A stretch of 64,000 nt of DNA from a virus, in IMG/VR virus record IMGVR_UViG_3300037475_000032, positions 32,001 through 96,000 of that record. One strand, given 5' to 3'. The notes below the pieces were generated by a model that saw only the letters and a list, made by a program, of their open reading frames with translations, was not told where the DNA came from and searched no databases. Made by a program: the position numbers and the translations under genes. Positions 21,794 through 57,149 of the stretch are shown here, one piece after another; within the stretch, counting starts at the first letter, position 1; each line of letters begins with the position of its first letter.

Positions 21794-23761
21794 CTATGTT
21801 GCGCCAAGCAGGATGTACAGCAAATCTTCACGGGTCAACTTGGCGGACATCGACTCCTCGAAAGCGGCTCCGTCATAGAGGGCCTTGTGGTAGCCGTGCT
21901 TGGTGGCGATGATGTCCTGCTTGCGTTCCTCAATCGAGTCCGCCATGAGCAAGTCGTACCAGTAGTTGAACGGGAGGATAGAGTCGGCCCTGACGTTACG
22001 CATCCTCTGACGCTTGCGGACCCACGTCCACGGCAGGTTGTAGTTGACACCTACGGCGGCCTCTGGAAGGTCAATGGAGTCGGCTCCACGATCACTGGAG
22101 AGGAAGACTCGGATGCTTGGATCTTCACGGAATCGGTCCTTGGCGGCATCGGCCTGTTTCTGCGAGCCCTCGTACGTGACATAGCTAACGCCCCATTCAT
22201 CGAGCGCCGTGGTGAGCGGCTTCATCCCGTAGCTGGCCCAGGTCATGAAGATCAGAACCTTCTCATCCGGGTGCTTCTCCAAGATGATCTCCCTCAGGGT
22301 CTCCAACTTCGTGTGTCCCTTGTCCGTGGGTGCCTTCGGAAGGGCCTCCAGGAGCGTCATAGCGACCTCTGAGCCCTTTGGACCCGTCAGGGCAGGCAAC
22401 CCCTCCATATCGTCCTCGAATTCGCTTAGGAGCAGTTCGAAGGCATTACGATTCTTGGCCGACTCCACGATCATGGATGGCGCATCGCAGACCATCTGCA
22501 TGACCTGGATGAGTGAGAGAACGCACGAGTCATCGAAGTCGGCCTCGATCATCTCCTTGGCCTTCCCCGTGAGTACGTCATAGACGCGCCTCTGCGTCGG
22601 ATGCCAGTCGATGAGCAGCGGGTCCTCAATCACCTTGGGGAAGTACTTGGCAACCTCCGGGTCATCTCGGCTCACGCGATGGGTCATGTGTTCTAGGCGT
22701 GGCTCCAGCTTGTCGAGGTTGATCCACTTCTCGGGCTTATGGGAGAACGGATTCTTGTAGCCCACGTACTCCCCCTCGAACTCCTCGACACGACCCAGGA
22801 GTGGCGGATTCATCATGCGGATGCAGTTGAACTGCCCTTCGGGCGAATTCTCAATGGGAGTAGCCGATAGCTCGAACTGTCGCATCCAGGCAGCACGCGA
22901 CAGCGCACCCTCAAGACCTTCCTCCTTCGAGGTAAAGCGACTCCATAGGCACTTCTTGACGGCCTTGTAGAGGATCGTGTTGCGGTTGCTCAGACGAGTT
23001 GGCATCTCGTCCCAGAAGAACAACACATCGCGGTCCTCAAGCACCACGGCGAAGAACTCGTGATCCTCACGGTACTTCTCGTAGTTGGTGATCGCTACGA
23101 CTTTCTCACCTGCCATGAGGCGGTCCTGGATTTCCTCATAGATCTTCCAGCGACGCTTAGGCGGCCCATCGATGATGACCGACTCCACATCCGCTAGGCG
23201 CATGAGCTTCTTCTGCATGTCACGCTTGTTGTTCGACTTGACGACAACGAACGCGAGATCAAATGGGTGACCATGCTCCATATGCCACAGGATGGCGCTG
23301 GCGATGAAGGCGGTCTTACCTGTGCCGGTATCCCACACCACGCATCCGGCGTTTAAACGCTCGTCTCGGATGAGCTTGTTGAATCCGGTAATCTGCCACG
23401 GAAGCATCCCGTTCTGCGTACCCTCAAGGGTAGAGTTGAGGGAGAACGGTGGAAGATCGTGCAGATGGTCGTAGGCGTGCAGGATGTCTTCGGGCGGATC
23501 GGTGAAGACCACCTGATACCCCGACTCCTGCGCATACGAGAGGAAGTTGTCTAGACCCGCAGGTGAGACCGTGCGGTAGTGACCGATGATCTCCTCGAAG
23601 TCAAAGAAGAAGTCCGGCTGTAGTGACTCCACGGACCATCGGCCTTGGAAGTCCTCGCTCGGCGAGAGAAAGAGCCACAGACCTTGGTCGTCACGAGACA
23701 GACCATCTAGTCTCTCGACTAGCGCCTCATCAAGAAGGTGATATCTCTGTCCATCGACCAT
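21794..23761 (-). CDS. SNF2-family helicase
   Basis: WDTGTGKT, WDEM, SATPIEN, DSIDL, NYNLPW motifs. Confidence 0.85.
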   Translation of the reverse strand: MVDGQRYHLLDEALVERLDGLSRDDQGLWLFLSPSEDFQGRWSVESLQPDFFFDFEEIIGHYRTVSPAGLDNFLSYAQESGYQVVFTDPPEDILHAYDHLHDLPPFSLNSTLEGTQNGMLPWQITGFNKLIRDERLNAGCVVWDTGTGKTAFIASAILWHMEHGHPFDLAFVVVKSNNKRDMQKKLMRLADVESVIIDGPPKRRWKIYEEIQDRLMAGEKVVAITNYEKYREDHEFFAVVLEDRDVLFFWDEMPTRLSNRNTILYKAVKKCLWSRFTSKEEGLEGALSRAAWMRQFELSATPIENSPEGQFNCIRMMNPPLLGRVEEFEGEYVGYKNPFSHKPEKWINLDKLEPRLEHMTHRVSRDDPEVAKYFPKVIEDPLLIDWHPTQRRVYDVLTGKAKEMIEADFDDSCVLSLIQVMQMVCDAPSMIVESAKNRNAFELLLSEFEDDMEGLPALTGPKGSEVAMTLLEALPKAPTDKGHTKLETLREIILEKHPDEKVLIFMTWASYGMKPLTTALDEWGVSYVTYEGSQKQADAAKDRFREDPSIRVFLSSDRGADSIDLPEAAVGVNYNLPWTWVRKRQRMRNVRADSILPFNYWYDLLMADSIEERKQDIIATKHGYHKALYDGAAFEESMSAKLTREDLLYILLGAT

Positions 23762-24062
23762 TCTCTCTGACCTCGATCCTCAGGTTTCCTTCCGCCATCA
23801 TGGAGTCGATGTCGGGGGCGCAGGTAGCCATCTTACGAGCCCATAGCTGGAACTCTTTTGACTTCGCCATGCGGACGAACGCATTGCGCTTGTTGAGCCC
23901 CTGCGTACGCTCCTCACGGCTTTCACCCCTTGCGCCGCTAGGCTCATGGATGATCCTGACCGCTGTATCTCGCTTGTTCTGGTTCTGACCGCCCGGACCT
24001 CCGGCACGAAACGTTTGCACGATGCAGTCCTTGATCGTGACGGTCGAGATCTTCTCGCGCAT
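23730..24062 (-). CDS. RF-1 domain (GGQ) peptidyl-tRNA hydrolase, ArfB-like
   Basis: FRAGGPGGQNQNKRDTAVRIIH; no codon-recognition domain. Confidence 0.9.
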   Translation of the reverse strand: MREKISTVTIKDCIVQTFRAGGPGGQNQNKRDTAVRIIHEPSGARGESREERTQGLNKRNAFVRMAKSKEFQLWARKMATCAPDIDSMMAEGNLRIEVRENGRWTEISPS

Positions 24063-24844
24063 CACTCCACTATATCAGCGTCGTCGGGTGCCTCTTCGGC
24101 TTCGATAGGAGGCGGTAGCTGCAAGCCCTCCTCGACGGCGAACTCGACATCATCCATCTGACGCAGACGCCTAACTTCGTTGACGATCTTCTGGTTCGTT
24201 TCATCGTCGCAGACGTTCTTGACGGCTCGGATGAAGATGCGAAGTGAAGTCTCGGCCTCATCGCCCTTGACCTGCGACGAGTTGGATTCCATCTCGTTGA
24301 CGAGCTTTATCATCTGGATGAGATCACGGACCTCAGCCGTGACCACGCCGTTGATGACATCCTCGTACGTCTTGCCGATGAGTACCTTCAATACCCCTCG
24401 GCTTGTCAACGCCCCCTGAACCCCTTCGCGGTAGTTCTGTTTGATGAGATCGGCCTCTTCCTCAAGCTGAGCACGCACAACGGCGTCATCAATCGCCATG
24501 TGCTTCTTCGAATGGTTGGAGATGGAGCGTCGGTCGATCTTCTCGCCGTTGGCATCCGGTGGGATGGACTCAGCTAGGGCCGAGAGGGAAACCATTCCCT
24601 TCACTAGCTGGCGCTCGATGTAGACGCGATACTCGCTTGTACATACCTTGCAGCGTGGCTCCGTAATCATCGGCGGAGCAAGCGCCTTCTCCCTCATGGC
24701 GATCTCGAAGCGATCCTCGTCCTGCCATGACTTCTGGAGATCCTTGCCGGTGGTTTTATCCAACACCTCACGGCGCTTCTTGCGCTCGATGTCGCTGACT
24801 CCTACCTCTCCATCGGTGTCTACGTCGCGTTCTAGATCGGGCAT
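24062..24844 (-). CDS. Hypothetical protein (CxxC, HTH-like)
   Basis: Coupled ORF with genome-like codon usage. Confidence 0.6.
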   Translation of the reverse strand: MPDLERDVDTDGEVGVSDIERKKRREVLDKTTGKDLQKSWQDEDRFEIAMREKALAPPMITEPRCKVCTSEYRVYIERQLVKGMVSLSALAESIPPDANGEKIDRRSISNHSKKHMAIDDAVVRAQLEEEADLIKQNYREGVQGALTSRGVLKVLIGKTYEDVINGVVTAEVRDLIQMIKLVNEMESNSSQVKGDEAETSLRIFIRAVKNVCDDETNQKIVNEVRRLRQMDDVEFAVEEGLQLPPPIEAEEAPDDADIVE

Positions 24845-46645: not shown

Positions 46646-46718
46646 GCCCTTGTAGCCCAACGGACAAGGCACTCGCCTTCTAAGCGAGCGATTGGGGGTT
46701 CGATTCCCTCCAAGGGCG
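46646..46718 (+). tRNA. tRNA-Arg(TCT)
   Basis: Cloverleaf; TTCGA T-loop. Confidence 0.9.
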
Positions 46719-46899
46719 CTACCGGCTTTACTCCCACCGGACATACTCAACGGGAGTGCGCAGGGTAAAAACCTACGTTGGCAGCGGTAACCATACCGCA
46801 ATGCGGGGATGTGCTCCCGTGGCCCCTAAGCCTAACAGCCGGGGTCTAGTTGCCACAGTCGAGGTCGCGCCCGGAAAAGTAGTGTCCTGCGTTCAACAT

Positions 46900-46983
46900 G
46901 CGTGTCAGGTGACTATCGGTTTGTCTCAGCGGGCTGTAACCCCGTGGCCTCTGGCTTGGAAGGTTCGACTCCTTCGGCACGCA
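46900..46983 (+). tRNA. tRNA-Tyr(GTA)
   Basis: Cloverleaf with variable arm. Confidence 0.85.
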
Positions 46984-46987
46984 CTCT

Positions 46988-47070
46988 GCGCAAATGATGG
47001 AATGGTAGACATGCTGTCTTGAGGAGGCAGTGCCCTAACGGGCGTGAGGGTTCGACTCCCTCTTTGCGCA
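46988..47070 (+). tRNA. tRNA-Leu(GAG)
   Basis: Cloverleaf. Confidence 0.9.
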
Positions 47071-47074
47071 TCAT

Positions 47075-47156
47075 GCCGAAGTGATGGAATGGTAGACGTG
47101 CCACGCTTAGAACGTGGTGCCCTTGTGGCGTGCGGGTTCGACTCCCGCCTTCGGCA
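47075..47156 (+). tRNA. tRNA-Leu(TAG)
   Basis: Cloverleaf. Confidence 0.9.
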
Positions 47157-47158
47157 CT

Positions 47159-47231
47159 TGCAGTAAGGTGGTCTGGATGACCATTTGTGGCTCATATCCA
47201 CAAGAGGAGAGTTCGATTCTCTCTGCTGCTA
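47159..47231 (+). tRNA. tRNA-Met(CAT), 1:72 mismatch
   Basis: Cloverleaf. Confidence 0.75.
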
Positions 47232-47234
47232 TAC

Positions 47235-47316
47235 GTCTCTGTGGTGGAACTGGCAGACACGCACGGTTCAAACCCGTGTGCCATTTGGCGTGAGGGTTCG
47301 ACTCCCTCCAGGGACA
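47235..47316 (+). tRNA. tRNA-Leu(CAA)
   Basis: Cloverleaf. Confidence 0.9.
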
Positions 47317-47326
47317 TGTAGTACGA

Positions 47327-47399
47327 GGGGCTATAGCTCAGTTGGGAGAGCATCGCGCTGGCAGTGCGAGGGTCAGGGGTTCGAGTCCCCTTAGCTCCA
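47327..47399 (+). tRNA. tRNA-Ala(GGC)
   Basis: Cloverleaf; G3:U70. Confidence 0.92.
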
Positions 47400-47499
47400 T
47401 CGTCGCTTCCGGGTTGCCCGTGCCAGCGGGGACCGGACAAACACACTCCCTGGCAGGAGTGGAACAATACGGCCACAAGTGCCGGGCGGATGAAGTTTA

Positions 47500-47573
47500 C
47501 AGAACGTGGCGCAGCTTGGTAGCGTGCTCCCTTGGGGTGGGAGAGGTCGCGGGTTCAAATCCCGCCGTTCTGA
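47500..47573 (+). tRNA. tRNA-Pro(GGG)
   Basis: Cloverleaf. Confidence 0.9.
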
Positions 47574-47577
47574 CTGA

Positions 47578-47648
47578 CGGGGACAAGTGTTATGGCCGCA
47601 CGGGGCGTTTGGGGCGCTCTAGTCAGAGTTCGATTCTCTGGTCCCCGA
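47578..47648 (+). tRNA. tRNA-Pro(TGG)
   Basis: Cloverleaf. Confidence 0.85.
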
Positions 47649-47746
47649 TAGCGTTGATGGTAAGTCGTGTCTAGGTGACAGGTGCCGGATCACCACTCAT
47701 TGAGTGCCGGAACAACATCGAGTCAACCGTCGCGGTCAACGCATAG

Positions 47747-47820
47747 CAGGATATGGCGCAGTCTGGTAGCGCGCTCCCCTCGGACGGGAGAGGTCGGAGG
47801 TTCGAATCCTCTTATCCTGA
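47747..47820 (+). tRNA. tRNA-Pro(CGG)
   Basis: Cloverleaf. Confidence 0.9.
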
Positions 47821-47921
47821 TAGTCGGAAACCCTCGCGCAAGGGCGTATTGGAAGGGAGTCATGACCCCGAAGACATCGGAAGTAGCGGACAAAGGTACG
47901 CCTACCCGGTGCGGCTAACAT

Positions 47922-47993
47922 GCCTACATGGTGTAAGTGGTATCATCCTGACCTGGTACGTCAGTGTCCCGAGTTCGATTCTCGGTGTAGGCT
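47922..47993 (+). tRNA. tRNA-Thr(GGT)
   Basis: Cloverleaf. Confidence 0.88.
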
Positions 47994-47994
47994 T

Positions 47995-48186
47995 ATGGTA
48001 TGCAAGAGTGGAAAGAGAACATATCCCTCGAAGCGGCAAGCTGCTAAGCGAGCCGTGAATCTCAGCATCCAGGAAGGGAAGGGTCTTTGGCCGTACAAGT
48101 GCCCGGAATGTCCCGATTGGCACTTGACATCGAAACGGCCGTCGAAGCGCTCTTACAAGTGCCGCGATGGGACCCGCAACCGATAG
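47995..48186 (+). CDS. Small basic Zn-finger-like protein
   Basis: CKSGKRTY..YKCPECPDWHLTS. Confidence 0.6.
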   Translation: MVCKSGKRTYPSKRQAAKRAVNLSIQEGKGLWPYKCPECPDWHLTSKRPSKRSYKCRDGTRNR

Positions 48187-48189
48187 CTT

Positions 48190-48261
48190 GCCTGCTAGGT
48201 GTTTACGGTGGCACACTTCACTCGTAATGAAGAGGACGGGGCTCGAATCCCCGAGTGGGCT
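48190..48261 (+). tRNA. tRNA-Thr(CGT)
   Basis: Cloverleaf; T-loop CTCGAAT. Confidence 0.8.
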
Positions 48262-48266
48262 TAGAT

Positions 48267-48335
48267 GGGGTGTAGGTCATGGTGACCAATCGGATTCCAA
48301 ACCCGAAGGCGAGCGTTCGATTCGTTCACGCCCCG
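48267..48335 (+). tRNA. tRNA-Trp(CCA)
   Basis: Compact cloverleaf. Confidence 0.75.
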
Positions 48336-48445
48336 CTCGACGTGCTGCAAGCGACGGCTTGTAGAGTTGTGGTGCTGTAGTCGAAGGCACGCGCCAGCAA
48401 CAATGCTGCCCGTGGACAGGCTTAAAACCTCTCTCGCGGGCTTTT

Positions 48446-48519
48446 GGTTCCTTAGCTCAGTTGGTTAGAGCGCCGCCCTGTCAAGGCGGAGGTCACGGGT
48501 TCGAGTCCCGCAGGGACCG
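48446..48519 (+). tRNA. tRNA-Asp(GTC)
   Basis: Cloverleaf. Confidence 0.92.
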
Positions 48520-48525
48520 CTTCAT

Positions 48526-48597
48526 GCGTTCGTATGGTTAGTGGTAGACCCTCCGACTTTTAATCGGAAAGCTGGGGTTCGATTCCCCACGAACGCA
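48526..48597 (+). tRNA. tRNA-Lys(TTT)
   Basis: Cloverleaf. Confidence 0.85.
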
Positions 48598-48767
48598 CTA
48601 GACGTGGTGACCGTCTAAGAAGGTGTAGGCCCTTGTTAGGGTTGAACCTCGTAAACTCACCACCGCCCGGTTCCCTACACCGGCAAAGGCACGGTAGGGC
48701 GTGTCATGACAATAGAGGGGTTCACGTTCCCGTCAGGGAGTCGTGCTTCGTCTCGGCGGTTCTACTT

Positions 48768-48842
48768 AGACCCTTAGCTTAGATGGCCTAAAGCGTCGGT
48801 TTTACACACCGAAGATCCTGGGTTCGAAACCCAGAGGGTCTA
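48768..48842 (+). tRNA. tRNA-Val(TAC)
   Basis: Cloverleaf. Confidence 0.88.
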
Positions 48843-48883
48843 CTTGCGTCAGGTTCTTTTCCTCCTTTCTTCCTGACGCTTTT

Positions 48884-48955
48884 GGGCGACTAGCTCATTG
48901 GGAGAGCGCCTGCGTGACATGCAGGAGGTACGGGGTTCGATCCCCCGGCCGCCCA
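48884..48955 (+). tRNA. tRNA-Val(GAC)
   Basis: Cloverleaf. Confidence 0.88.
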
Positions 48956-48966
48956 CTGTAGTACAT

Positions 48967-49389
48967 GGGCCTGACAGGCTTCGACTTCATGAGAGGCTGT
49001 TGGCGTCATGCAGCGGTATGGACACACCTTAAGGTCCAACGTCATAATCGGCAACGATACAGACACGCTAGCAATCCCGGCATCGTTCCTTGCAGGTGAG
49101 CAGATGGCTCCTGCGGAGGTTCACGTCGGAGGCGCAGCACTCGCACTGGTTTAGACCCCAGTGCCGGGTTTCTCACACTCCCTGTGAACAGAAAGTGTGA
49201 GTGGTGCATCAGTGCAAGCTCGTACCGTAGTAATGCAGGATGGTAGCCCCGCGCGTTTTCCTAGTTTCCCGATATGAACTAGGTGGTGGAAAAGATGGCG
49301 GCAAGCCCGTCGTCCCCGGTAGTGAAAGCTGCTAGACAATGACCCAAAGAAGCGCATGGAACACGAGGGTTCGATTCCCTCCAGGTCCA
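48967..49389 (+). ncRNA. ssrA: tmRNA
   Basis: GGGCCTG/CAGGTCC-A acceptor with G3:U70; GG.TTCGAC 5' motif; T-arm; tag ORF 49050-49154 ending AALALV. Confidence 0.92.
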
Positions 49390-49393
49390 CTAT

Positions 49394-49465
49394 CTCCTTA
49401 TAGTCCAATGGATAAGACGACCGCCTCCTAAGCGGTAGATTCAGGTTCGACTCCTGATGGGGAGA
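49394..49465 (+). tRNA. tRNA-Arg(CCT)
   Basis: Cloverleaf. Confidence 0.88.
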
Positions 49466-49565
49466 CTCTTGTAGCGCCCTAGCCATTGCGAAGGGCTCGG
49501 TTGCGGGGAACGGACAGATAATCTCGCTTCCAAGTGGTCTGTCACTTGTGGTGTCTATGAGAAAT

Positions 49566-49653
49566 GGAAAGACGGCAACGGCTGGCGACGCAGCTTCCCT
49601 GCTAAGGAAGTGGTCCTTCATTGGGCCTATGGGTTCGATCCCCATTCTTTCCG
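49566..49653 (+). tRNA. tRNA-Ser(GCT)
   Basis: Cloverleaf; long variable arm; G73. Confidence 0.85.
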
Positions 49654-49805
49654 CTCAATCTTGGTCGTAGGCTATTCCCTACCACAGCTAGAGTTCGAAC
49701 TGGCAAGGGGAGTAAGACGATAGCCCCGCTGCGGAGCGGATCAGCCCGGATCTCGTGCCTACACAAAACGGACAGTAAGTAGCCGGGGCCTACCAAGATG
49801 TTCAT

Positions 49806-49877
49806 TCTCCTGTGGCGCAATGGCAGCGCGGCAGCCTGTTAAGCTGACGGTTGAAGGTTCGAGTCCTTCCGGGAGAG
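49806..49877 (+). tRNA. tRNA-Asn(GTT)
   Basis: Cloverleaf. Confidence 0.9.
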
Positions 49878-49879
49878 CT

Positions 49880-50233
49880 ATGGTTCGTAACTGTAAGAAG
49901 CACGGAGAGGTGAGACATCGATCTCGCGGAAAGCGAGGTTGGCGTTGTACTCTCTGCGCCAACGAATCAGTCTCGAACAGTCGCAGAAAGATCAAGCGTA
50001 TCCTTGTGGAAGAACACGGAAGCGCTTGCAAGATCTGTGGCTACAATCGTTGTATCGCGGCCCTTCACTTTCATCATGTCGATCCAGAGACTAAGAGCTT
50101 TGGGGTCGCGGCAGGAGGAAGTGCAAGGTCGCTCAAGAGAGCACGCGAAGAGGCCGCCAAGTGCGTCCTTTTGTGCTCGAACTGCCACGCCGAGATAGAG
50201 GCTGGCATTACGTCCCTGTGGCCGAATGGTTAG
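49880..50233 (+). CDS. HNH homing endonuclease
   Basis: CKICGY..LHFHHVDP..KCVLLCSNCH. Confidence 0.85.
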   Translation: MVRNCKKHGEVRHRSRGKRGWRCTLCANESVSNSRRKIKRILVEEHGSACKICGYNRCIAALHFHHVDPETKSFGVAAGGSARSLKRAREEAAKCVLLCSNCHAEIEAGITSLWPNG

Positions 50234-50282
50234 GTACGCGGCTGCAACCCGTGGTATGCAGGTTCGACTCCTGTCAGGGACT
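50212..50282 (+). tRNA. tRNA-Cys(GCA)
   Basis: Cloverleaf; U73; overlaps HNH stop. Confidence 0.88.
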
Positions 50283-50326
50283 TGCAGGTAGCGGCGTCTG
50301 CCTGAGATGGCTCAACGCCGCGCTTT

Positions 50327-50412
50327 GGAAGGTGACCGGCATGGACGAGGACACCGCCTTGAAAGCGGCTGGGGACTAACCGCCCTCAAGGGTTCGATTC
50401 CCTTACCTTCCG
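50327..50412 (+). tRNA. tRNA-Ser(TGA)
   Basis: Cloverleaf. Confidence 0.85.
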
Positions 50413-50443
50413 CTCCTATCCCCGCAAAGCAAAGGATTGTATC

Positions 50444-50857
50444 TTGAGAGCAGTCATGTACCTCTTTGCCAACAAAGGGCTCGGCATGTCGTCGGGCAAG
50501 ATGTCGGCACAAGTGGCCCACGCAGCGGTCGAGGCATTTCACATCAGCGATCCCGAGTTGGTTGCTCAGTGGTACGTCGGCGGCCATTACTGCAAGTACG
50601 TGATGGCAGCGGAGGATGAAGTTCACCTTCACACCATCAAGTACTACCTGGAGCAGCGGGGCTTCAAGACGAAGCTCATTGTCGATGAGGGTCACACGGA
50701 GATCCGTCCTCATACGGCTACGGCTCTGGGTGTCGAGATCGTGGACAAGGATGACGCTCATGTCGCTGCCACGTTCGGAGACTTCAAGATCTACCGCGAT
50801 CCTCCAGTGCGTCCTAAACCGGATAAGCTGAGGCGTCGTAGGTGGTATCACTCATAG
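50444..50857 (+). CDS. pth2: Peptidyl-tRNA hydrolase, Pth2 family
   Basis: LGMSSGKMSAQVAHAAV..IVDEGHTEI..TALG. Confidence 0.88.
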   Translation: MRAVMYLFANKGLGMSSGKMSAQVAHAAVEAFHISDPELVAQWYVGGHYCKYVMAAEDEVHLHTIKYYLEQRGFKTKLIVDEGHTEIRPHTATALGVEIVDKDDAHVAATFGDFKIYRDPPVRPKPDKLRRRRWYHS

Positions 50858-50882
50858 CAGTCAAGTCAAGGAGAAAAGAACA

Positions 50883-51086
50883 GTGGCACTACTCGCAAGA
50901 CAGGACAACACCCCCCCCGCACTCGCCGCTGAGCTAGATGCTCACAAGCAGCGCTATCAGGCGGGCCGCGCATCGGTCATCGAGCGTGGGACTCAGAGGG
51001 TCGCCCAGATCAAGCACCTCCAGAAGGAGCTTGAGGCTGAGGCTTCCGCCCATCAAGCTGTGTTGGAGCAAGCACACCAGTCGTAA
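50883..51086 (+). CDS. Small coiled-coil protein
   Basis: AAGGAG RBS. Confidence 0.55.
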   Translation: MALLARQDNTPPALAAELDAHKQRYQAGRASVIERGTQRVAQIKHLQKELEAEASAHQAVLEQAHQS

Positions 51087-51104
51087 GACAGCAAGGGAGT
51101 CGTC

Positions 51105-51320
51105 GTGTTTACCGAAGACGAGATAAAGGCATTGGTCGCGCACGCTGTACACATGGCACGCACGACGACTCCTGGAAATGTCTGCAATGAGGCAGTCGTA
51201 CAGCAGGTCATGAAGGAAGAGTTCGTGCCCGGACAGGGATGGAAGTCCAAGTACTTCACATCCGATGAGCGCCCGGAGACGGACTTGATCGATCTTTGGC
51301 TCTCAGAGCCACGTATCTAG
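51105..51320 (+). CDS. Hypothetical protein
   Basis: AGGGAG RBS. Confidence 0.5.
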   Translation: MFTEDEIKALVAHAVHMARTTTPGNVCNEAVVQQVMKEEFVPGQGWKSKYFTSDERPETDLIDLWLSEPRI

Positions 51321-51407
51321 GAAGGTACGCGAATGGTTAGCACGCTGCTTGGAAAGCAGTTGGTCGTTTAAACGCACGGCTTGTGGGTTCGAGTCCCATG
51401 CCTTCCG
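51320..51407 (+). tRNA. tRNA-Ser(GGA)
   Basis: Cloverleaf. Confidence 0.85.
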
Positions 51408-51411
51408 CTCT

Positions 51412-51496
51412 GGATAGTACGCGAATGGAAAGCAGCCTGCCTCGAAAACAGGTGTAGGGTGAAAGTCCTTTCTGGGTTCGAGTCCCAGGCTATCCG
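51412..51496 (+). tRNA. tRNA-Ser(CGA)
   Basis: Cloverleaf. Confidence 0.85.
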
Positions 51497-51499
51497 TAA

Positions 51500-51571
51500 G
51501 GCGATTTAGCTCACTGGTAGAGCGGCACGCTGAAAACGTGCGCGTACCGAGTTCGATTCTCGGAATCGCCA
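51500..51571 (+). tRNA. tRNA-Phe(GAA)
   Basis: Cloverleaf. Confidence 0.9.
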
Positions 51572-51594
51572 TCCATCCTGGTCCATAATAGGTG

Positions 51595-52077
51595 ATGCAA
51601 CCAGGAGATTTCATCCTTTGTCACCGTAAGGGGATCGTCAGCAGTATCATCCGTCTTGGTGAGCGCATACGCTTCCGTTCGGGTGACAGATGGTCCCACG
51701 TCGCCATCGTGGAGAACGATGAATGGATCATCGAGGCTCTGACGAAAGGCGTAGTGCGTTCACACATCTCAGTCTATGACAAGACCGAGAAGCTGCTTGT
51801 CAGCAGCGGCCTAGATGAGCACGACCGCCCGCAGGCTGTCGCCTTCGCTCAAAGCTGTGTGGGGCAGAAATACGGATGGCTCATCATCTTCGGAATCGCT
51901 CTGCGCTTCCTCACTCCGGGTCGAGGTCTTTGGTTCGGCTCAGATGGCAGTGAGATTTGCAGTGGCCTTGTGGCCCAGGCGTTGGTGCGTGGCCCGAAGA
52001 TCTTCAAGGTCAACCCTGCTAGCATCACTCCAGCGGAGTTGGCGGAAGAATACGCTGTACCGCACAAGAGCAAGTAG
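51595..52077 (+). CDS. Permuted papain-like NlpC/P60 (YiiX/YebB family) enzyme
   Basis: QPGDFIL..WSHVAI..IIEA..GQKY..ICSGLV. Confidence 0.8.
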   Translation: MQPGDFILCHRKGIVSSIIRLGERIRFRSGDRWSHVAIVENDEWIIEALTKGVVRSHISVYDKTEKLLVSSGLDEHDRPQAVAFAQSCVGQKYGWLIIFGIALRFLTPGRGLWFGSDGSEICSGLVAQALVRGPKIFKVNPASITPAELAEEYAVPHKSK

Positions 52078-52150
52078 GGGTTGGTAGCTCAACTGGCAGA
52101 GCAGGGGCCTCTTAAGCCCAAGGTTGAGGGTTCGATTCCCTCCCAACCCA
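52078..52150 (+). tRNA. tRNA-Lys(CTT)
   Basis: Cloverleaf. Confidence 0.88.
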
Positions 52151-52155
52151 CTCAT

Positions 52156-52227
52156 AGGAACATGGTGAAATGGTAATCACGACTCTCTGATACGGAGTTA
52201 TTCTGGGTTCGATTCCCAGTGTTCCTA
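52156..52227 (+). tRNA. tRNA-Ile(GAT)
   Basis: Cloverleaf. Confidence 0.88.
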
Positions 52228-52233
52228 CTGCAT

Positions 52234-52304
52234 GGCCCGGTCGTCCATGGGTAGGACCGTTGTTTCTCAGGCAACAAAACAGGGTTCGAGTCCCTGTCGG
52301 GCTA
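52234..52304 (+). tRNA. tRNA-Glu(CTC)
   Basis: Cloverleaf. Confidence 0.85.
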
Positions 52305-52462
52305 CTACTAATCAACCTCCTTGGAGGTAGATACAGGTCGGAGGTTCAGGTTGTCGCGCGCAGCCATCACGATCTCTGACCGGCCCGTGGATTCCCGTAT
52401 GAGGTGAGGTAAAATCTCACTGTGCCGTAACGGGATGGTGGAGGAAGCGACGGCGATTACGA

Positions 52463-52536
52463 CGCGGAGTGGAGCAGTCTGGAAGCTCGCTTGGCCCATA
52501 ACCAAGAGGTCGGGGGTTCGAATCCCTCCTCCGCTA
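52463..52536 (+). tRNA. tRNA-fMet(CAT)
   Basis: CGCGGAG start; C1 mismatch; GGAGCAG D-arm. Confidence 0.88.
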
Positions 52537-52600
52537 TACGGATGAAAACATGCACATGTACCCACTTCATGTGTACGTTTTCCTCCAATGATGTGTACAT

Positions 52601-52674
52601 TGCTCGTTAGGGGAATTGGCAGACCCGCTCGGCTCTGAACCGAGAGTATCCAGGTTCGACCCCTGGACGAGCAG
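52601..52674 (+). tRNA. tRNA-Gln(CTG)
   Basis: Cloverleaf; U1-A72. Confidence 0.88.
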
Positions 52675-52680
52675 CTTCTT

Positions 52681-52752
52681 TCCGGGATCGTACAATCGGC
52701 AGTACGGCGGACTCTGAATCCGCAAATCGAGGTTCGAGCCCTTGTCCCGGAG
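52681..52752 (+). tRNA. tRNA-Gln(CTG), second copy
   Basis: Cloverleaf. Confidence 0.88.
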
Positions 52753-52847
52753 CTAATACAGCGTCACCGTTGGGTGACCGGAGGTCCGTCAGATGGCGGC
52801 CGTACGGGTGAGCGCTACCGCTTTCGGGTGAGAGTCCCGACTTACAT

Positions 52848-52942
52848 GCGTCTGTAGCTGAATGGTAGAGTCGGCCTCAAAAACCGGCCACAGCACTGGG
52901 TTTTCACCCCAGCGGATGCGGGTTCAAGTCCCGTCAGGCGCA
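52848..52942 (+). tRNA. Atypical 95-nt tRNA, probably Glu(TTC) with a D-loop insertion
   Basis: Acceptor and T arms canonical; two anticodon-like arms. Confidence 0.65.
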
Positions 52943-52947
52943 CTCAT

Positions 52948-53022
52948 TGGGGAATAGAATATGCTGGTATGTTCGCCTGACTTTGAATCAGGAGGCCGTG
53001 GGTTCGATTCCTACTTCCCCAG
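52948..53022 (+). tRNA. tRNA-Gln(TTG)
   Basis: Cloverleaf. Confidence 0.88.
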
Positions 53023-53026
53023 CTTT

Positions 53027-53129
53027 GCCCTTGTGGCGGAATCGGCATACGCATCCGGCTTAAACCCGGCCACGCGAGCTTCCTCTCAACAAGGTCTCGC
53101 ACTTGAGGGTTCGACTCCCTCCAAGGGCA
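53027..53129 (+). tRNA. tRNA-Leu(TAA) with extended variable arm (103 nt)
   Basis: Cloverleaf. Confidence 0.8.
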
Positions 53130-53207
53130 CTTCGCCCCAGATCCGCCTCTGCTCGATACTGCGACGGCAGTGAGTATGCGCCTGGGGCCACGAATGTAGT
53201 GAACCAT

Positions 53208-53280
53208 GGCGTGGTTCGTATATCGGTCAATACTCCAGGTTGTGAACCTGGCAAGATGGGTTCGATTCCCATACCTCGCC
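53208..53280 (+). tRNA. tRNA-His(GTG) with G-1
   Basis: Cloverleaf; C73. Confidence 0.85.
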
Positions 53281-53282
53281 CT

Positions 53283-53356
53283 GTGAGCGATCCCGAAGTG
53301 GTCGAGGGTCCGGGTTGTGATTCCGGCGTAGGCGAGTTCGAGTCTCGTCGCTCACC
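53283..53356 (+). tRNA. tRNA-His(GTG), second copy
   Basis: Cloverleaf; C73; no encoded G-1. Confidence 0.82.
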
Positions 53357-53388
53357 CTTTTCTTCGTGCTCCTCATCCGTAATGGATG

Positions 53389-53724
53389 ATGTTCCGCAAA
53401 GGCAATACGGTCCCACTCAGAGAGTACTTCGAGGCTCTACGTGTTGCCGACCAACGAGCCCTCCAGATCAAGGAGGTAGCGGACAAGGATGCACTCAGGC
53501 TGGCTCGTGAGATCCAGACGTACAAGGACGAGAAGGCTAACGAGCTACGCAGTCAGATCGAGCGAGAACAAGGCGAACGTGCCACCAAGAAGGAACTGCA
53601 AGATCTGGCAGACCGCATCCAGGAGGAACGCCACACGGGCGGTCTCGATACACGCACATTGGTCGTTAGCATAGTCCTGATTCTTGTGGGTATAGCTGCG
53701 ATCATCGGGCCACATATTCACTAA
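53389..53724 (+). CDS. Coiled-coil protein with C-terminal TM helix (possible lysis accessory)
   Basis: Hydrophobic C terminus; late motif at start. Confidence 0.6.
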   Translation: MFRKGNTVPLREYFEALRVADQRALQIKEVADKDALRLAREIQTYKDEKANELRSQIEREQGERATKKELQDLADRIQEERHTGGLDTRTLVVSIVLILVGIAAIIGPHIH

Positions 53725-53728
53725 CTTT

Positions 53729-53802
53729 GCTCCTCTGGTGTAACGGTTAGCACAACTGGTCTTATAAGCAGTCAGGTCGGGGTTCAAATCCTCGGGGGAG
53801 TA
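53729..53802 (+). tRNA. tRNA-Ile(TAT), irregular anticodon stem
   Basis: Cloverleaf; ACTG-GT-CTTATAA-G-CAGT. Confidence 0.7.
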
Positions 53803-53814
53803 CTTGCAGCATAC

Positions 53815-53889
53815 GGGTGTGTACCAAATGTTGGCTTTGGAACTGGCTCTTAACCAGAGTACACGCAGGTTCGATTCCTGTCACGCCCA
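53815..53889 (+). tRNA. tRNA-Lys(CTT), second divergent copy
   Basis: Cloverleaf. Confidence 0.75.
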
Positions 53890-53935
53890 TGGGTGGTCCG
53901 CGAGGACATTGCGGGTTCGAGTCCCGTCATGGACA
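53890..53935 (+). pseudogene. 3' half of a Leu-type tRNA (variable arm, T-arm, acceptor strand)
   Basis: GTCC-GCGA-GGAC; GCGGG-TTCGAGT-CCCGT; CATGGAC-A. Confidence 0.65.
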
Positions 53936-54033
53936 CAACGCCGTTACCTGTGTGTACAGCAGGTGCGCTCGATTCTAGATAGAGCGAGGCCAAGTGCTCG
54001 TGTATGCTAACTGGTAAAGCAGCCCTAACGCTT

Positions 54034-54108
54034 GTCGCCATCGTCTAGCCTGGTTCAGGACGCGGCCCTCTCACGGCCGAAACACGGGTTCAAATCCCGT
54101 TGGCGGTA
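54034..54108 (+). tRNA. tRNA-Glu(CTC), second copy
   Basis: Cloverleaf. Confidence 0.88.
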
Positions 54109-54135
54109 CTTGCTCAGATGTGGTATCCTACCGCC

Positions 54136-54771
54136 ATGAGTCGCGCTAGACCATGGAGGGATCAGGAGACCGGACAAACCCACTGGTTTGACTACCGTTC
54201 TTCCTCCGCCACAGTCGAGCAACTTGAGATCTTGGCCGATGCAGAGGGTCTTGATCTTGACGACCTACTTGACGAGGGCCTGTCGCAAAGGCAGGTGTTG
54301 TTTCGGCTACATGCCGTCACTAACCTCATCCCGGAGAGAGTCCTGGAGCGCAGGCAAGAACGCCTCGAACGCTCCCAGGTCGAACCGATCTGCCGGATAT
54401 GCAGCTTGTACGGATGGGAGTGCGAGGGTAAGATCACTCGTCACCATTTCGTGCCAAGGTGGCTCATGCGAGAGCTTGATAGCTACCAGACCTACGCCGC
54501 GAAGGCGAGGTGTACCATCCCCGTGTGTGTCGGTCGCCACCGCGATCTTCACTACAGGGAAAGTGATATTGACAAGAGCATCGTTCCGTACCTAACGGCT
54601 GAGGAGAAGGAGCTAGCACGCATCCTACTCCAAGAGCTAAAGGACGAGCGTCCAACGATCTACGAGTTGATCGGCGGCGGAAGTACTGCGAGCTACGAGT
54701 ACCAGCTTGTCCGAGACTTTAGGCGAGGAGGTTTCGAGTCAGTGACACATGGAGAAATTGAAGGTCCATAG
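54136..54771 (+). CDS. HNH-like endonuclease
   Basis: CRIC..TRHHFVPR..IPVC..HRDLH; TGgTATCCT 6 nt before ATG. Confidence 0.65.
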   Translation: MSRARPWRDQETGQTHWFDYRSSSATVEQLEILADAEGLDLDDLLDEGLSQRQVLFRLHAVTNLIPERVLERRQERLERSQVEPICRICSLYGWECEGKITRHHFVPRWLMRELDSYQTYAAKARCTIPVCVGRHRDLHYRESDIDKSIVPYLTAEEKELARILLQELKDERPTIYELIGGGSTASYEYQLVRDFRRGGFESVTHGEIEGP

Positions 54772-54811
54772 CCTTACGCCGTGAGTGAGGGCGAAAATAC
54801 TCACTCAGCTA

Positions 54812-54884
54812 CTCCTCGTGGTCCAGTGGATAAGACGCTGCCCTGCGAAGGCGGAGATCGGAGGTTCGAGTCCTCCCGAGGAGA
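54812..54884 (+). tRNA. tRNA-Arg(GCG)
   Basis: Cloverleaf; CTGCC-CT-GCG-AA-GGCGG. Confidence 0.85.
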
Positions 54885-54973
54885 CTAGATGCGGTGGCCC
54901 AAGTGAGAGGCAGCCCGACAAGGGAAGAGTTGCCGGAATCCAAACCCGGCTCGCATCTGCTATTGTAGTTCTT

Positions 54974-55047
54974 GCCCATATCGCCTAACGGACATGGCAC
55001 CAGTCTTCGAAACTGGCACAATCCGGGTTCGACTCCCGGTGTGGGCG
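54974..55047 (+). tRNA. tRNA-Arg(TCG)
   Basis: Cloverleaf. Confidence 0.88.
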
Positions 55048-55302
55048 CTAGGAAGGTAGCTCCTTCCCAGAGGGACGAGAGAAGTCCGCGACAACCAAGA
55101 TGGACTGTGAGGGAGTTGCGGGGTAAGGTTCGCTACCGGCTTACATCTGGGCTATTCAGTCAACGCACCAGAGGGCCAAAGGGTAGGTCCCATCTCTTCG
55201 TTCCTTGTCTTTAGGCTCCTGCCGCTGACCTGAAAAGGCGGGAGTAGGTCAGAAGGCCCACGGTGCGCTACCAGCACTGCGATGTTCGCCCGTGGGACCC
55301 TT

Positions 55303-55374
55303 GGGGTAGTCGTATAACGGCGATTACAGCAGCTTGCCATGTTGCAGACGGGGGTTCGACTCCCCTCTACCCCT
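55303..55374 (+). tRNA. tRNA-Gly(GCC)
   Basis: Cloverleaf; U73. Confidence 0.85.
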
Positions 55375-55498
55375 CTTCGCCGCAGGCGATGGTGAGCGCA
55401 GTCAGGAGTGAGCACGCAGCAGCAAGTTAGTACGGTACAGTACGGTTGGGGACTCATAAACCCTATACTTGCGGCGCACGTCCGCACGTACTAATCAC

Positions 55499-55572
55499 GC
55501 ACTTGTAGCTCAGATGGTAAGAGCACTGGCTTGAAACCCCAGGTGTCGGAGAGTCGAAACCTCCCAAGTGCA
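55499..55572 (+). tRNA. tRNA-Phe(GAA), second copy with degenerate T-arm
   Basis: Acceptor and D arms perfect; T-loop GTCGAAA. Confidence 0.65.
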
Positions 55573-55863
55573 TGTAGTAGACGGCCGCTGTCCCTAGACT
55601 GGGGATAGAGGAAGTTCGGGACATCCTGGCCTGGGAAACTGGGTCGCTTCCGTAACCAGGAGGCATAGACAACTGACGTGTGGCGGGAGCCCTTGGCGCT
55701 TGAACCGAGCACGGTTGGTGAGGATGCAATCTCAAGCAGCGAAACCTAAGGGCTCTGCCTATGGTCATAGCGGGTTGGGAGCAGCGTGGGGATAACACCC
55801 TATACGCCACGCGCGAGCGTGAGAAAGATGGTCGTCCTAGACAGAATCCCGGCTACAGCTACA
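55573..55863 (+). ncRNA. rnpB: RNase P RNA (catalytic subunit), reduced S-domain
   Basis: CR-I GAGGAAGTTCGGGA (55608); CR-IV AGAAAGATG; CR-V ACAGAATCCCGGCTA (55841); P1-P5, P15 and P18(GCGA) all pair. Confidence 0.85.
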
Positions 55864-55867
55864 GTAT

Positions 55868-55939
55868 GCCTGCTAAGCATAAATGGTGATGCACTGGTCT
55901 TGTAAACCAGATAACTGGGTTCGATTCCCAGAGTAGGCT
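55868..55939 (+). tRNA. tRNA-Thr(TGT)
   Basis: Cloverleaf. Confidence 0.88.
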
Positions 55940-55968
55940 TCTCGCTCCATCCCTCGACTTAAGAGGTG

Positions 55969-56457
55969 ATGAGTGACTTTCGTGTGATCCAAGGATGCCC
56001 GTGTAACCCTACACTGGCCCCGTACATCGCCATGGTCTCTGAGGAGATCAACGGTGTCGTCAACAGTATCTATCGTGGTGCTGATGCCGAGTCGATCCTT
56101 CGAGCACACGGACACCAGAGTCAGGCCCAACTCTACAACGGTTGGATTCACAGGTTGCCGGGATACCTTCCCGCTAACCCTCCTGGCCGAAGCACTCACG
56201 AGCTTCGCTCCGATGGAGTCGCTTACGCGGGTCCGGTAGGTCGCAAGCTCGATTGGTGGCAGCAGGGCTTCGACGTGAATGACGATCAGGTCAATCACTG
56301 GAAGTCCGCAGCACGCAGCCATGGATGGGTACTCTTTCAGCCGTACAACAGCGGCTCCGAGTTCCACCACCTCAACTTCCATCAGCCTCCGCATCCGCCG
56401 AGTCTGAGAACGAGATTGAGGATCATCAAGTTGCGAGCGACGCTGCCACGTCACTAA
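55969..56457 (+). CDS. M15-family Zn peptidase (endolysin-type)
   Basis: SIYRG..QAQLY..ANPPGRSTHE..GFDV..SEFHHL. Confidence 0.7.
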   Translation: MSDFRVIQGCPCNPTLAPYIAMVSEEINGVVNSIYRGADAESILRAHGHQSQAQLYNGWIHRLPGYLPANPPGRSTHELRSDGVAYAGPVGRKLDWWQQGFDVNDDQVNHWKSAARSHGWVLFQPYNSGSEFHHLNFHQPPHPPSLRTRLRIIKLRATLPRH

Positions 56458-56461
56458 TCAT

Positions 56462-56533
56462 GGGGGATTAGTGCTAATGGGAACACGCTGCCCTTGCAAG
56501 GCAGAGTTACGGGTTCGACTCCCGTATCCTCCA
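56462..56533 (+). tRNA. tRNA-Ala(TGC)
   Basis: Cloverleaf; G3:U70. Confidence 0.9.
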
Positions 56534-56535
56534 CT

Positions 56536-56603
56536 GCGCACGTAGTCTAAGTAGGACGCCCGCCATGAGGCGGGTAGTGCAGGTCCGACCCCTGCCGTGT
56601 GCT
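56536..56603 (+). ncRNA. tRNA-Gly-like RNA lacking a canonical anticodon loop
   Basis: All stems pair; anticodon arm CCCGCC-ATGA-GGCGGG. Confidence 0.65.
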
Positions 56604-56607
56604 CTAT

Positions 56608-56678
56608 GCGGGTATGGTCTAATGGTATGACAAGTGCCTTCCAAGCTCTTGATGCCGGTTCGATTCCGGCTATCCGCT
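56608..56678 (+). tRNA. tRNA-Gly(TCC)
   Basis: Cloverleaf. Confidence 0.88.
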
Positions 56679-56784
56679 CTCTGTGAGCCCCAGACGCGCC
56701 ATCCGTGCGGGAATAGACGGCCGTCACCAATACCGGAATGTGTCTCGGGTGTAAACGACCATGAACACGGCGCTCATAGTACCC

Positions 56785-56856
56785 GGTTCCATAGTGAAAC
56801 GGCCATCACGCTAGCCTGTCACGCTGGAGGTAGGGGTTCGATTCCCCTTGGGACCG
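56785..56856 (+). tRNA. tRNA-Asp(GTC), second copy
   Basis: Cloverleaf. Confidence 0.88.
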
Positions 56857-57003
56857 CTTAGGCTATACAGACCGGGCACATCAGCCCGGACGCTGAGCTA
56901 ACTCTCGTCGTCCTTGCCATGTGCCGCACCCCGGATTAGGGAGTACATGGGCGTCGAGTTACACGAGTAGCCGATCATCCGTGCAAGCGGTAGGTGAAAG
57001 CCA

Positions 57004-57074
57004 CGCTCTCAGGCGATGGCAGCCAAACGGAGTCATAATCCGTCTAGGTGTGGGTTCGAGTCCCACGGGAGCGA
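57004..57074 (+). tRNA. tRNA-Met(CAT), third CAU tRNA
   Basis: Cloverleaf. Confidence 0.75.
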
Positions 57075-57149
57075 CTAACAACCGGGCGCGATATCCTCGA
57101 CACAGGACTCTCATCTTAGTTTTCTTTGAGTCCTGGCGCGGAATAAGTG

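Follow-up and report, generated by a model that had tools for sequence, protein, structure and literature searches.

The canonical RNase P RNAs (RPRs) contact the tRNA elbow with two interleaved T-loops (PMC10966300), and for archaeal type T RNAs (RF02357) there is a model of the S-domain with only one CR-III T-loop (PMC13462272). The alternative braces known for these RNAs are P6 in type A and the L5.1–L15.1 contact in type B, the latter being needed for activity (PMC5066622, PMC12974513), while the 11-nt receptor of type B sits in the S-domain and not, as in the phage RNA described here, in the catalytic domain (PMC3494683). As regards viruses, an RPR-like RNA of loose structural likeness is encoded by camelpox and orthopoxviruses and is inactive on pre-tRNA (PMC3001073); in the literature searched, it was the only earlier viral RPR candidate found. 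In a study of RPRs in CPR bacteria, only tRNAs and tmRNA were found in megaphages at standard thresholds (PMC8172020). No phage RNase P RNA was found described in the literature searched, which left out most subscription journals.

The locus considered here lies in a 64-kb window (the whole stretch of DNA analysed), corresponding to positions 32001–96000 of a complete 160,765-bp IMG/VR phage genome with direct terminal repeats. The genome carries baseplate, DNA polymerase, ribonucleotide reductase, endolysin and terminase genes, and a search for a tyrosine integrase found none. Judged by terminase, the nearest deposited relatives are Rhodococcus phage E3 and Gordonia and cluster C Mycobacterium myoviruses, at 33–36 % identity only, and the sequencing runs that contain the RPR stretch are mostly from soil. 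A provirus carried by a 603-kb contig of Ca. Solirubrobacter pratensis (Actinomycetota, Thermoleophilia) is more closely related (L256, terminase 53 %), which makes an actinomycete the probable host of this phage. The RNA is carried, it appears, by a clade of ~160-kb soil myoviruses whose hosts are probably Actinomycetota.

Identity, structure and distribution of the RNA

The stretch 55573–55863 is almost certainly a real, divergent RNase P RNA gene of the RNase P clan CL00002. Among the Rfam models compared, bacterial type A scored best: RF00010 (RNaseP_bact_a) matches 55569–55870 with 38.6 bits (E 2.3e-10) over model positions 1–367, its full length, although this score lies below the 100-bit RF00010 cut-off, so that the RPR has no Rfam match at the gathering threshold. 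Orthologs reached 56.9, 63.4 and 46.4 bits. When a model of 66 pairs was applied to a 12-sequence ortholog alignment, 90.7 % of positions were paired and compensatory change was found in 43 pairs, a result equalled by 0/500 shuffles, slid controls giving 32–43 %. The RNase P landmarks quoted in a preliminary description of this stretch were all found in order and in their places, and its P1, P2, P3, P4 (with the bulged U) and P5 pairings are borne out by covariation in the 12 orthologs; of the checks that it proposed, cmsearch gave the sub-threshold match above and comparison of related phages revealed strongly covarying core helices. Homology, secondary structure, loop/receptor co-conservation and gene context are thus directly supported, and it is fairly likely on this sequence evidence that the RNA is of bacterial type A origin and acts as a pre-tRNA-processing ribozyme by the mechanism proposed below. 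The elements of the gene are as follows.

55573..55863, +, RNase P RNA gene (phage RPR); RF00010 match, covariation in 12 orthologs
55573..55578, +, P1 5' strand, pairs with 55858–55863; 100 % paired, 6/6 pairs compensatory
55580..55586, +, P2 5' strand, pairs with 55830–55836; 100 % paired, 3 pairs compensatory
55589..55607, +, P3 hairpin; 94.7 % paired, 4/5 pairs compensatory
55608..55621, +, CR-I / P4 5' strand, 3 bp + bulge + 5 bp, bulged U 55616; compensatory substitutions
55622..55627, +, P5 5' strand (6 bp), pairs with 55721–55726; 94.4 % paired (12 orthologs)
55628..55645, +, P5.1-like 7-bp hairpin with GAAA tetraloop (55635–55638) at the place of the P6 5' strand, predicted clamp donor; clade conservation
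55646..55664, +, P8-like hairpin with GUAAC-type loop; 84 % paired, 5/6 pairs compensatory
55672..55685, +, S-domain stems (P10/P11-like), pair with 55706–55719; P11 variants GCG/CGC, GAG/CUC, GUG/CAC
55686..55688, +, CR-II remnant (GGA), 3 nt; alignment
55689..55697, +, P12 stub, 3 bp, hypervariable; 96–106 nt longer in near-identical strains
55698..55705, +, CR-III-like 8-nt loop, predicted single T-loop UUGAA (55700–55704); alignment, same UUGAA in CR-III of host rnpB
55727..55729, +, J5/15 (CAA), anchor adenosines; identical to host rnpB
55730..55780, +, P15 (55730–33/55777–80), L15 with GGU (55773–75), P16 (55739–40/55770–71) and P17; alignment
55745..55764, +, 11-nt GAAA tetraloop receptor in P17, CCUAAG 55745–50 / UAUGG 55760–64; residue pattern, clade conservation
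55784..55807, +, P15.1-like hairpin; fold, similar in L249, variable in others
55808..55821, +, P18 with GNRA loop GCGA (55813–16); fold and sequence, GCAA in L249
55822..55830, +, CR-IV (J18/2); RF00010 match, alignment
55841..55855, +, CR-V / P4 3' strand; RF00010 match, covariation

The P4 helix, the normal centre of catalysis, is paired at all 8 positions in the 12 orthologs (100 %, 5 pairs compensatory), and 434/440 cells are paired across 55 RPR-like sequences, with compensatory variants within the clade. Its unusual sequence differs by three compensatory substitutions from the canonical form still present in L242, L249, L262 and L265, and in three clade members CR-I, P4 and the start of P5 are letter-for-letter those of the host rnpB. 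A 'slipped' P4 register was considered and rejected, since G-C occurs at the U-G position in L433 and L431, which fixes the normal register with U55616 as the bulge. The catalytic metals of the T. maritima structure are bound by the bulged U and by phosphates of P4, and the substitutions in P4 therefore need not impair chemistry. Catalysis by the phage RPR is considered likely, judging by its sequence.

J5/15 CAA, the 5' side of L15, the start of P5 and the CR-III loop agree with the rnpB of Solirubrobacter (L467), which has a GUAAC loop similar to that of the hairpin 55646–55664, for which the name P8 is presumptive. P15 is about 94 % paired in the 12 orthologs and is present as first described, but not with the 6 bp (TCTCAA/TTGGGA) assigned to it, which are not favoured: because several orthologs carry GGUA at that place, a 4-bp P15 with an open L15 is most likely. 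The GGU of L15, the element of RPRs that pairs with tRNA 3' ends, is kept. P18 is present in the sequence as CACGC-GCGA-GCGTG, although it varies among orthologs, and the mature 3' end of the RNA may extend as far as 55867.

Relatives were fetched by terminase and by pattern search, only a sequence model being used. Syntenic orthologs were found at L242, L243, L244, L247, L249, L256, L262, L264, L265, L431, L433 and L447, and on the other strand at L441; pattern searches yielded L287, L006 and the near-identical strain L307, and two further pattern scans gave no new members. L450 and L451 were set aside, as they look like ordinary host rnpB. Among the matches listed for a 15-nt CR-I variant, CR-V followed downstream in 40/118 viral cases, 32 of which lie within 500 nt of a tRNA, and in 0/120 cases from cellular genomes. 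A blastn search against 50,697 deposited phage records gave no homolog, and a weak search detected no RPR in the cultured distant relatives HyRo, Pupper and E3. The presence of the RNA is patchy, several relatives having none detectable.

Other viral RPR-like RNAs were also observed. At L045 (minus strand, RPR ~3330–3583 of the reverse complement), a distant viral RPR has by eye a tRNA-like stretch at the position of the S-domain, which was not called by ARAGORN, and at L035, L066, L087, L092, L097 and L102, CR-I and CR-V are 155–161 nt apart with essentially no S-domain. The prophage RPR of Ca. Solirubrobacter pratensis (L256:4434-4714 / L465) gives no match at all with RF00010 and lies beside 33 prophage tRNA/tmRNA genes.

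Specificity domain and probable peripheral brace

The S-domain runs from the P8-like hairpin through two short stems and a 3-bp covarying P11 to GGA, P12 and an 8-nt U-N-N-N-A loop. This arrangement was recovered by script in 13/16 members (the pattern itself imposing the U and the A) and by eye in L307; it is doubtful in L006 and missing from L243. The 8-nt loop can be read as a single CR-III T-loop that lacks its CR-II partner, a sequence signature and not proof. P13 and P14 are absent and P7 and P9 apparently so, and the loss of these helices and of the interleaved double T-loop could cripple RNA-alone activity. At L243:1886-2262, the GAAA/receptor pair is kept, the CR-II/III module is lost and CR-I is altered.

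The preliminary description had proposed an RPR with a minimised, rewired specificity domain of only about 90 nt and no canonical CR-II/III. The RPR and the reduction of its S-domain stand, and the canonical form of CR-II/III is indeed absent, although a reduced GGA and a CR-III-like loop remain; the length is strain-specific, orthologs having P12 loops of anything between 2 and 149 nt. The rewiring, on the other hand, does not hold. It had been attributed to a 10-bp helix (55687/55746) linking the S-domain to the P15 extension, which can be drawn here but is unconserved, being 50.9 % paired among orthologs, a chance level that 428/500 shuffles match; a 10-bp helix with at most one G-U also arises in 451/3000 shuffles of the 291 nt (15 %). 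In L307 and contigs of four independent runs, its 3' strand is unchanged while its 5' strand is replaced by 96–106 other bases. The 5' strand is in fact the CR-II remnant with the 3-bp P12 stub, and the 3' strand is half of the 11-nt GAAA tetraloop receptor.

The conserved long-range link is instead probably a contact between GAAA tetraloop and 11-nt receptor within the catalytic domain. The P6 pseudoknot (J5/7–L17) has no counterpart here: the GAAA hairpin directly follows P5 and the receptor lies in P17, whereas the host rnpB has the usual P6 strands. The CCUAAG/UAUGG pattern matches the published residue numbering of the receptor (PMC2275092). Among 55 RPR-like sequences, 9 have both GAAA hairpin and receptor and 45 have neither; the one remaining receptor-like match, in L045, is due to chance. 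All nine receptor-bearing members have the GAAA loop, on a stem of 7 bp in eight and 6 bp in L447. The stem varies in sequence while the loop is invariant, and the receptor varies only at the middle U of UAUGG (U/C/A). In eight members, 18 nt separate J5/15 from the receptor, against 17 nt in L447, the one with the shorter stem. The receptor motif arises anywhere by chance in 1.7 % of shuffles and is found in 0/31 rnpBs of Thermoleophilia. As the eight of these members that have a terminase form one clade (support 100/100), the 9/9 co-occurrence represents a single gain that was kept and not nine gains. Docking of the GAAA loop into the P17 receptor is, from these sequence patterns, likely.

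Relatives without the pair display, by eye, different solutions at the same two sites: L264 has a kissing pair of 6 bp, the pairing is P6-like in L265, L431 and L441, and L256, L433 and L287 combine GCAA/GCUAA loops with a tandem GA/AG loop. The GAAA/receptor clamp is probably a third solution to the brace otherwise provided by P6 or L5.1–L15.1, and the clade constitutes a natural swap series at one strut, from P6-type pairing and kissing loop to GCUAA-type loop with tandem GA/AG and GAAA with 11-nt receptor. Together with the single-T-loop S-domain, this series renders two questions testable, namely how small an S-domain may be and whether peripheral braces are interchangeable.

Gene context, proposed mechanism and alternative roles

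The RPR lies within a co-oriented tRNA/tmRNA array. The relevant neighbours are as follows.

46646..57075, +, co-oriented array of ~49 tRNA genes and tmRNA (48967–49390); CCA encoded in 0/49 tRNAs
50444..50857, +, peptidyl-tRNA hydrolase Pth2, inside the array; PF01981, E 2e-20
55499..55572, +, degenerate tRNA-Phe(GAA)-like gene abutting the RPR 5' end; Rfam 52.3 bits, identical in L307
55868..55939, +, tRNA-Thr(UGU), 4 nt past P1; ARAGORN
23730..24065, -, RF-1-domain (ArfB-like) protein of the phage translation kit; PF00472, 54.5 bits

The genome also encodes a CCA-adding-type enzyme of 906 aa with a C-terminal HD domain, located outside the window (genome 108981–111701; L455:127-2847). Its ~450 N-terminal residues have no Pfam match and give a weak acetyltransferase-like Atlas lead (0.83). 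Neither RnpA nor HARP was detected in the whole phage genome, which extends the earlier remark that the window lacks rnpA, and no ORF with an RNR-type motif was found. In the absence of both proteins, the RPR would use host RnpA or none, host RnpA being somewhat the more probable. Promoter and terminator scans around the RPR gave chance-level results. A tRNA-Thr lies within ~10 nt 3' of the RPR in seven clade members, this phage included, so that cleavage of this tRNA at +1 would also release the 3' end of the RPR. In soil metatranscriptomes from three studies there are contigs that span the RPR of a close strain, a weak indication as they also cover flanking and coding DNA; they attest presence in RNA libraries and do not prove a discrete transcript. 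RPR contigs were deepest in two runs, but contig data cannot rank genes by RNA depth.

The tRNAs themselves appear unexceptional. The D-loop GG is present in 49/49 checked and the T-loop is canonical in nearly all, and U stands at -1 in 28/46, against a background of 22 %. U at -1 is the usual determinant of RNase P cleavage, and by all three features the phage tRNAs look like ordinary substrates; the earlier suggestion of substrates that the host enzyme handles poorly is on this account unsupported.

Several features of the array were noted in their own right. The sequence N73-C-U follows 32/46 tRNA genes and CC/CCA none (p about 1e-28), a bias found clade-wide that may stem from 3' processing or from pairing with the GGU of L15. 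The upstream neighbour, earlier named tRNA-Phe, is a Phe(GAA)-like gene, although a degenerate one that was recognized by Rfam only and missed by ARAGORN; its T-loop is non-canonical and its anticodon stem contains a C-C mismatch, yet the gene is 100 % identical in L307 and is possibly a processing signal or tRNA mimic, and a normal tRNA-Phe lies at 51500. Two tRNA-Leu-like genes (CAA, UAA) with very long variable arms, at 52848–52942 and 53027–53129, were missed by ARAGORN, and tRNA-like genes at 53729–53803 and 56536–56604 have irregular anticodon loops, the former of which could be read as a UAU anticodon. At 55211–55300 (+), just upstream of tRNA-Gly, the predicted structure consists of an H-type pseudoknot with stems of 8 and 7 bp and, after it, a long stem; it is kept in a related strain without 55040–55223, and it has no Rfam match and no homolog among the fetched loci.

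The proposed mechanism begins with transcription of the RPR within the tRNA polycistron, from which tRNA processing on both sides would release it. The RNA would then assemble, most likely with host RnpA, and remove the 5' leaders of ~49 CCA-less pre-tRNAs and the tmRNA, alongside the phage CCA-adding enzyme. Catalysis would take place at the normal P4 centre, with the substrate held by J5/15, L15 GGU and the single CR-III T-loop, and the fold would be braced by the clamp from the P5.1-like hairpin to P17 in place of P6. Ca. Solirubrobacter pratensis has its own canonical rnpB (RF00010, 246.6 bits), which makes the prophage copy an additional one, and because the phage tRNAs also look ordinary, the need for the RPR is not obvious; the simplest reading is that it adds to, or backs up, the capacity for processing 5' ends in a large tRNA polycistron.

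A more ambitious interpretation would see a self-sufficient, self-releasing RNase P ribozyme of new architecture, stabilized by the clamp so as to need little or no host RnpA, with which the phage rebuilds its full tRNA pool (its ribozyme making the 5' ends and its CCA enzyme the 3' ends) once host RNase P or host tRNAs are shut down or destroyed; this is unlikely. It is quite unlikely that the RNA, although active, is specialized, its one T-loop and relaxed elbow recognition directing it mainly to non-standard RNAs (tmRNA, degenerate or long-arm tRNAs, polycistronic or host transcripts) and not to bulk capacity. Such a role would suit the reduced CR-II and the few odd tRNA-like genes of the array (55499, 52848, 53027, 53729, 56536), but most phage tRNAs have canonical elbows and U-1, and the position of the RPR tracks tRNA arrays, as in the 32/40 viral cases mentioned above among the matches listed.

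RnpA binds the P2–P4 region of RPRs, which is the best conserved part of the phage RNA. Together with the heavily reduced S-domain and the precedent of the inactive camelpox RNA, proposed as a decoy (PMC3001073), this conservation could point to a non-catalytic or weakly catalytic mimic, which would sequester host RnpA or compete for pre-tRNA and thereby damp host tRNA maturation or decoy an anti-phage nuclease. That possibility is distinctly improbable, as the bulged U, the J5/15 adenosines, L15 GGU and CR-IV/V are all kept and have more to do with chemistry and the binding of substrate than with the binding of protein, and a phage producing ~49 leader-bearing pre-tRNAs gains little by blocking RNase P. 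The low Rfam score (38.6 of 100 bits) and patchy presence might point to a captured host rnpB in decay or to an artefact of assembly, but this is hardly tenable given the completeness of the phage genome with its terminal repeats and the recovery of the RPR in independent assemblies and sequencing runs, and is largely refuted by the extent of compensatory change among phages with terminases of just 55–70 % identity.

Comparison with known RNase P RNAs and phage ribozymes

Although it belongs to the RNase P clan, the phage RPR falls outside types A, B and T by the defining tests of each. With type A (RF00010; E. coli M1 RNA, T. maritima, Solirubrobacter rnpB L467) it shares the order of P1–P5 and P15–P18, the P4 pseudoknot with bulged U, CR-I, IV and V, J5/15 CAA, L15 GGU, the P16/P17 arm, a GNRA-capped P18 and a P8-like hairpin. 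Unlike type A, it is viral, has the GAAA hairpin and receptor in place of the P6 pseudoknot, lacks P13/P14 and apparently P7/P9, has a CR-II of 3 nt and an extra P15.1-like hairpin, and possesses an 8-nt CR-III-like loop where type A has two interleaved CR-II/CR-III T-loops. The P5.1 hairpin that follows P5 and replaces P6, the P15.1-like hairpin and the 11-nt receptor recall type B (RF00011; B. subtilis, PMC5066622), but P16/P17 are kept and the GAAA loop co-occurs with the P17 receptor, not with P15.1. As in archaeal type T, the S-domain is minimal, with one long stem, a predicted single CR-III T-loop and no full CR-II; type T, however, needs Pop5, Rpp30 and Rpp29 and keeps P6, and the only relative whose host is known resides as a prophage in a bacterium of the Actinomycetota, the bacterial model also scoring best. 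As the phage RPR has bacterial features (P18, L15), the resemblance to type T is probably convergent.

RNase P RNA has been treated as a cellular gene; if active, the phage RPR would place in phage genomes a multiple-turnover ribozyme that belongs to the core translation machinery. One sequenced Solirubrobacter lysogen, assembly GCA_000425945.1, carries both host and prophage RPR. The camelpox RNA is likewise viral, but the phage RPR alone has a full covarying core and lies among its likely substrates. The theta ribozymes are also phage ribozymes tied to tRNA maturation, although they are small, HDV-like and self-cleaving, act in cis on 3' trailers and have an unrelated fold (PMC10879173). Phage RPRs are missed by standard annotation because they score below Rfam cut-offs, and in this, as in the loss of peripheral helices, they resemble the diverged RNase P RNAs of CPR bacteria, which are cellular and many of which lack the L15 motif that the phage RPR keeps (PMC8172020).
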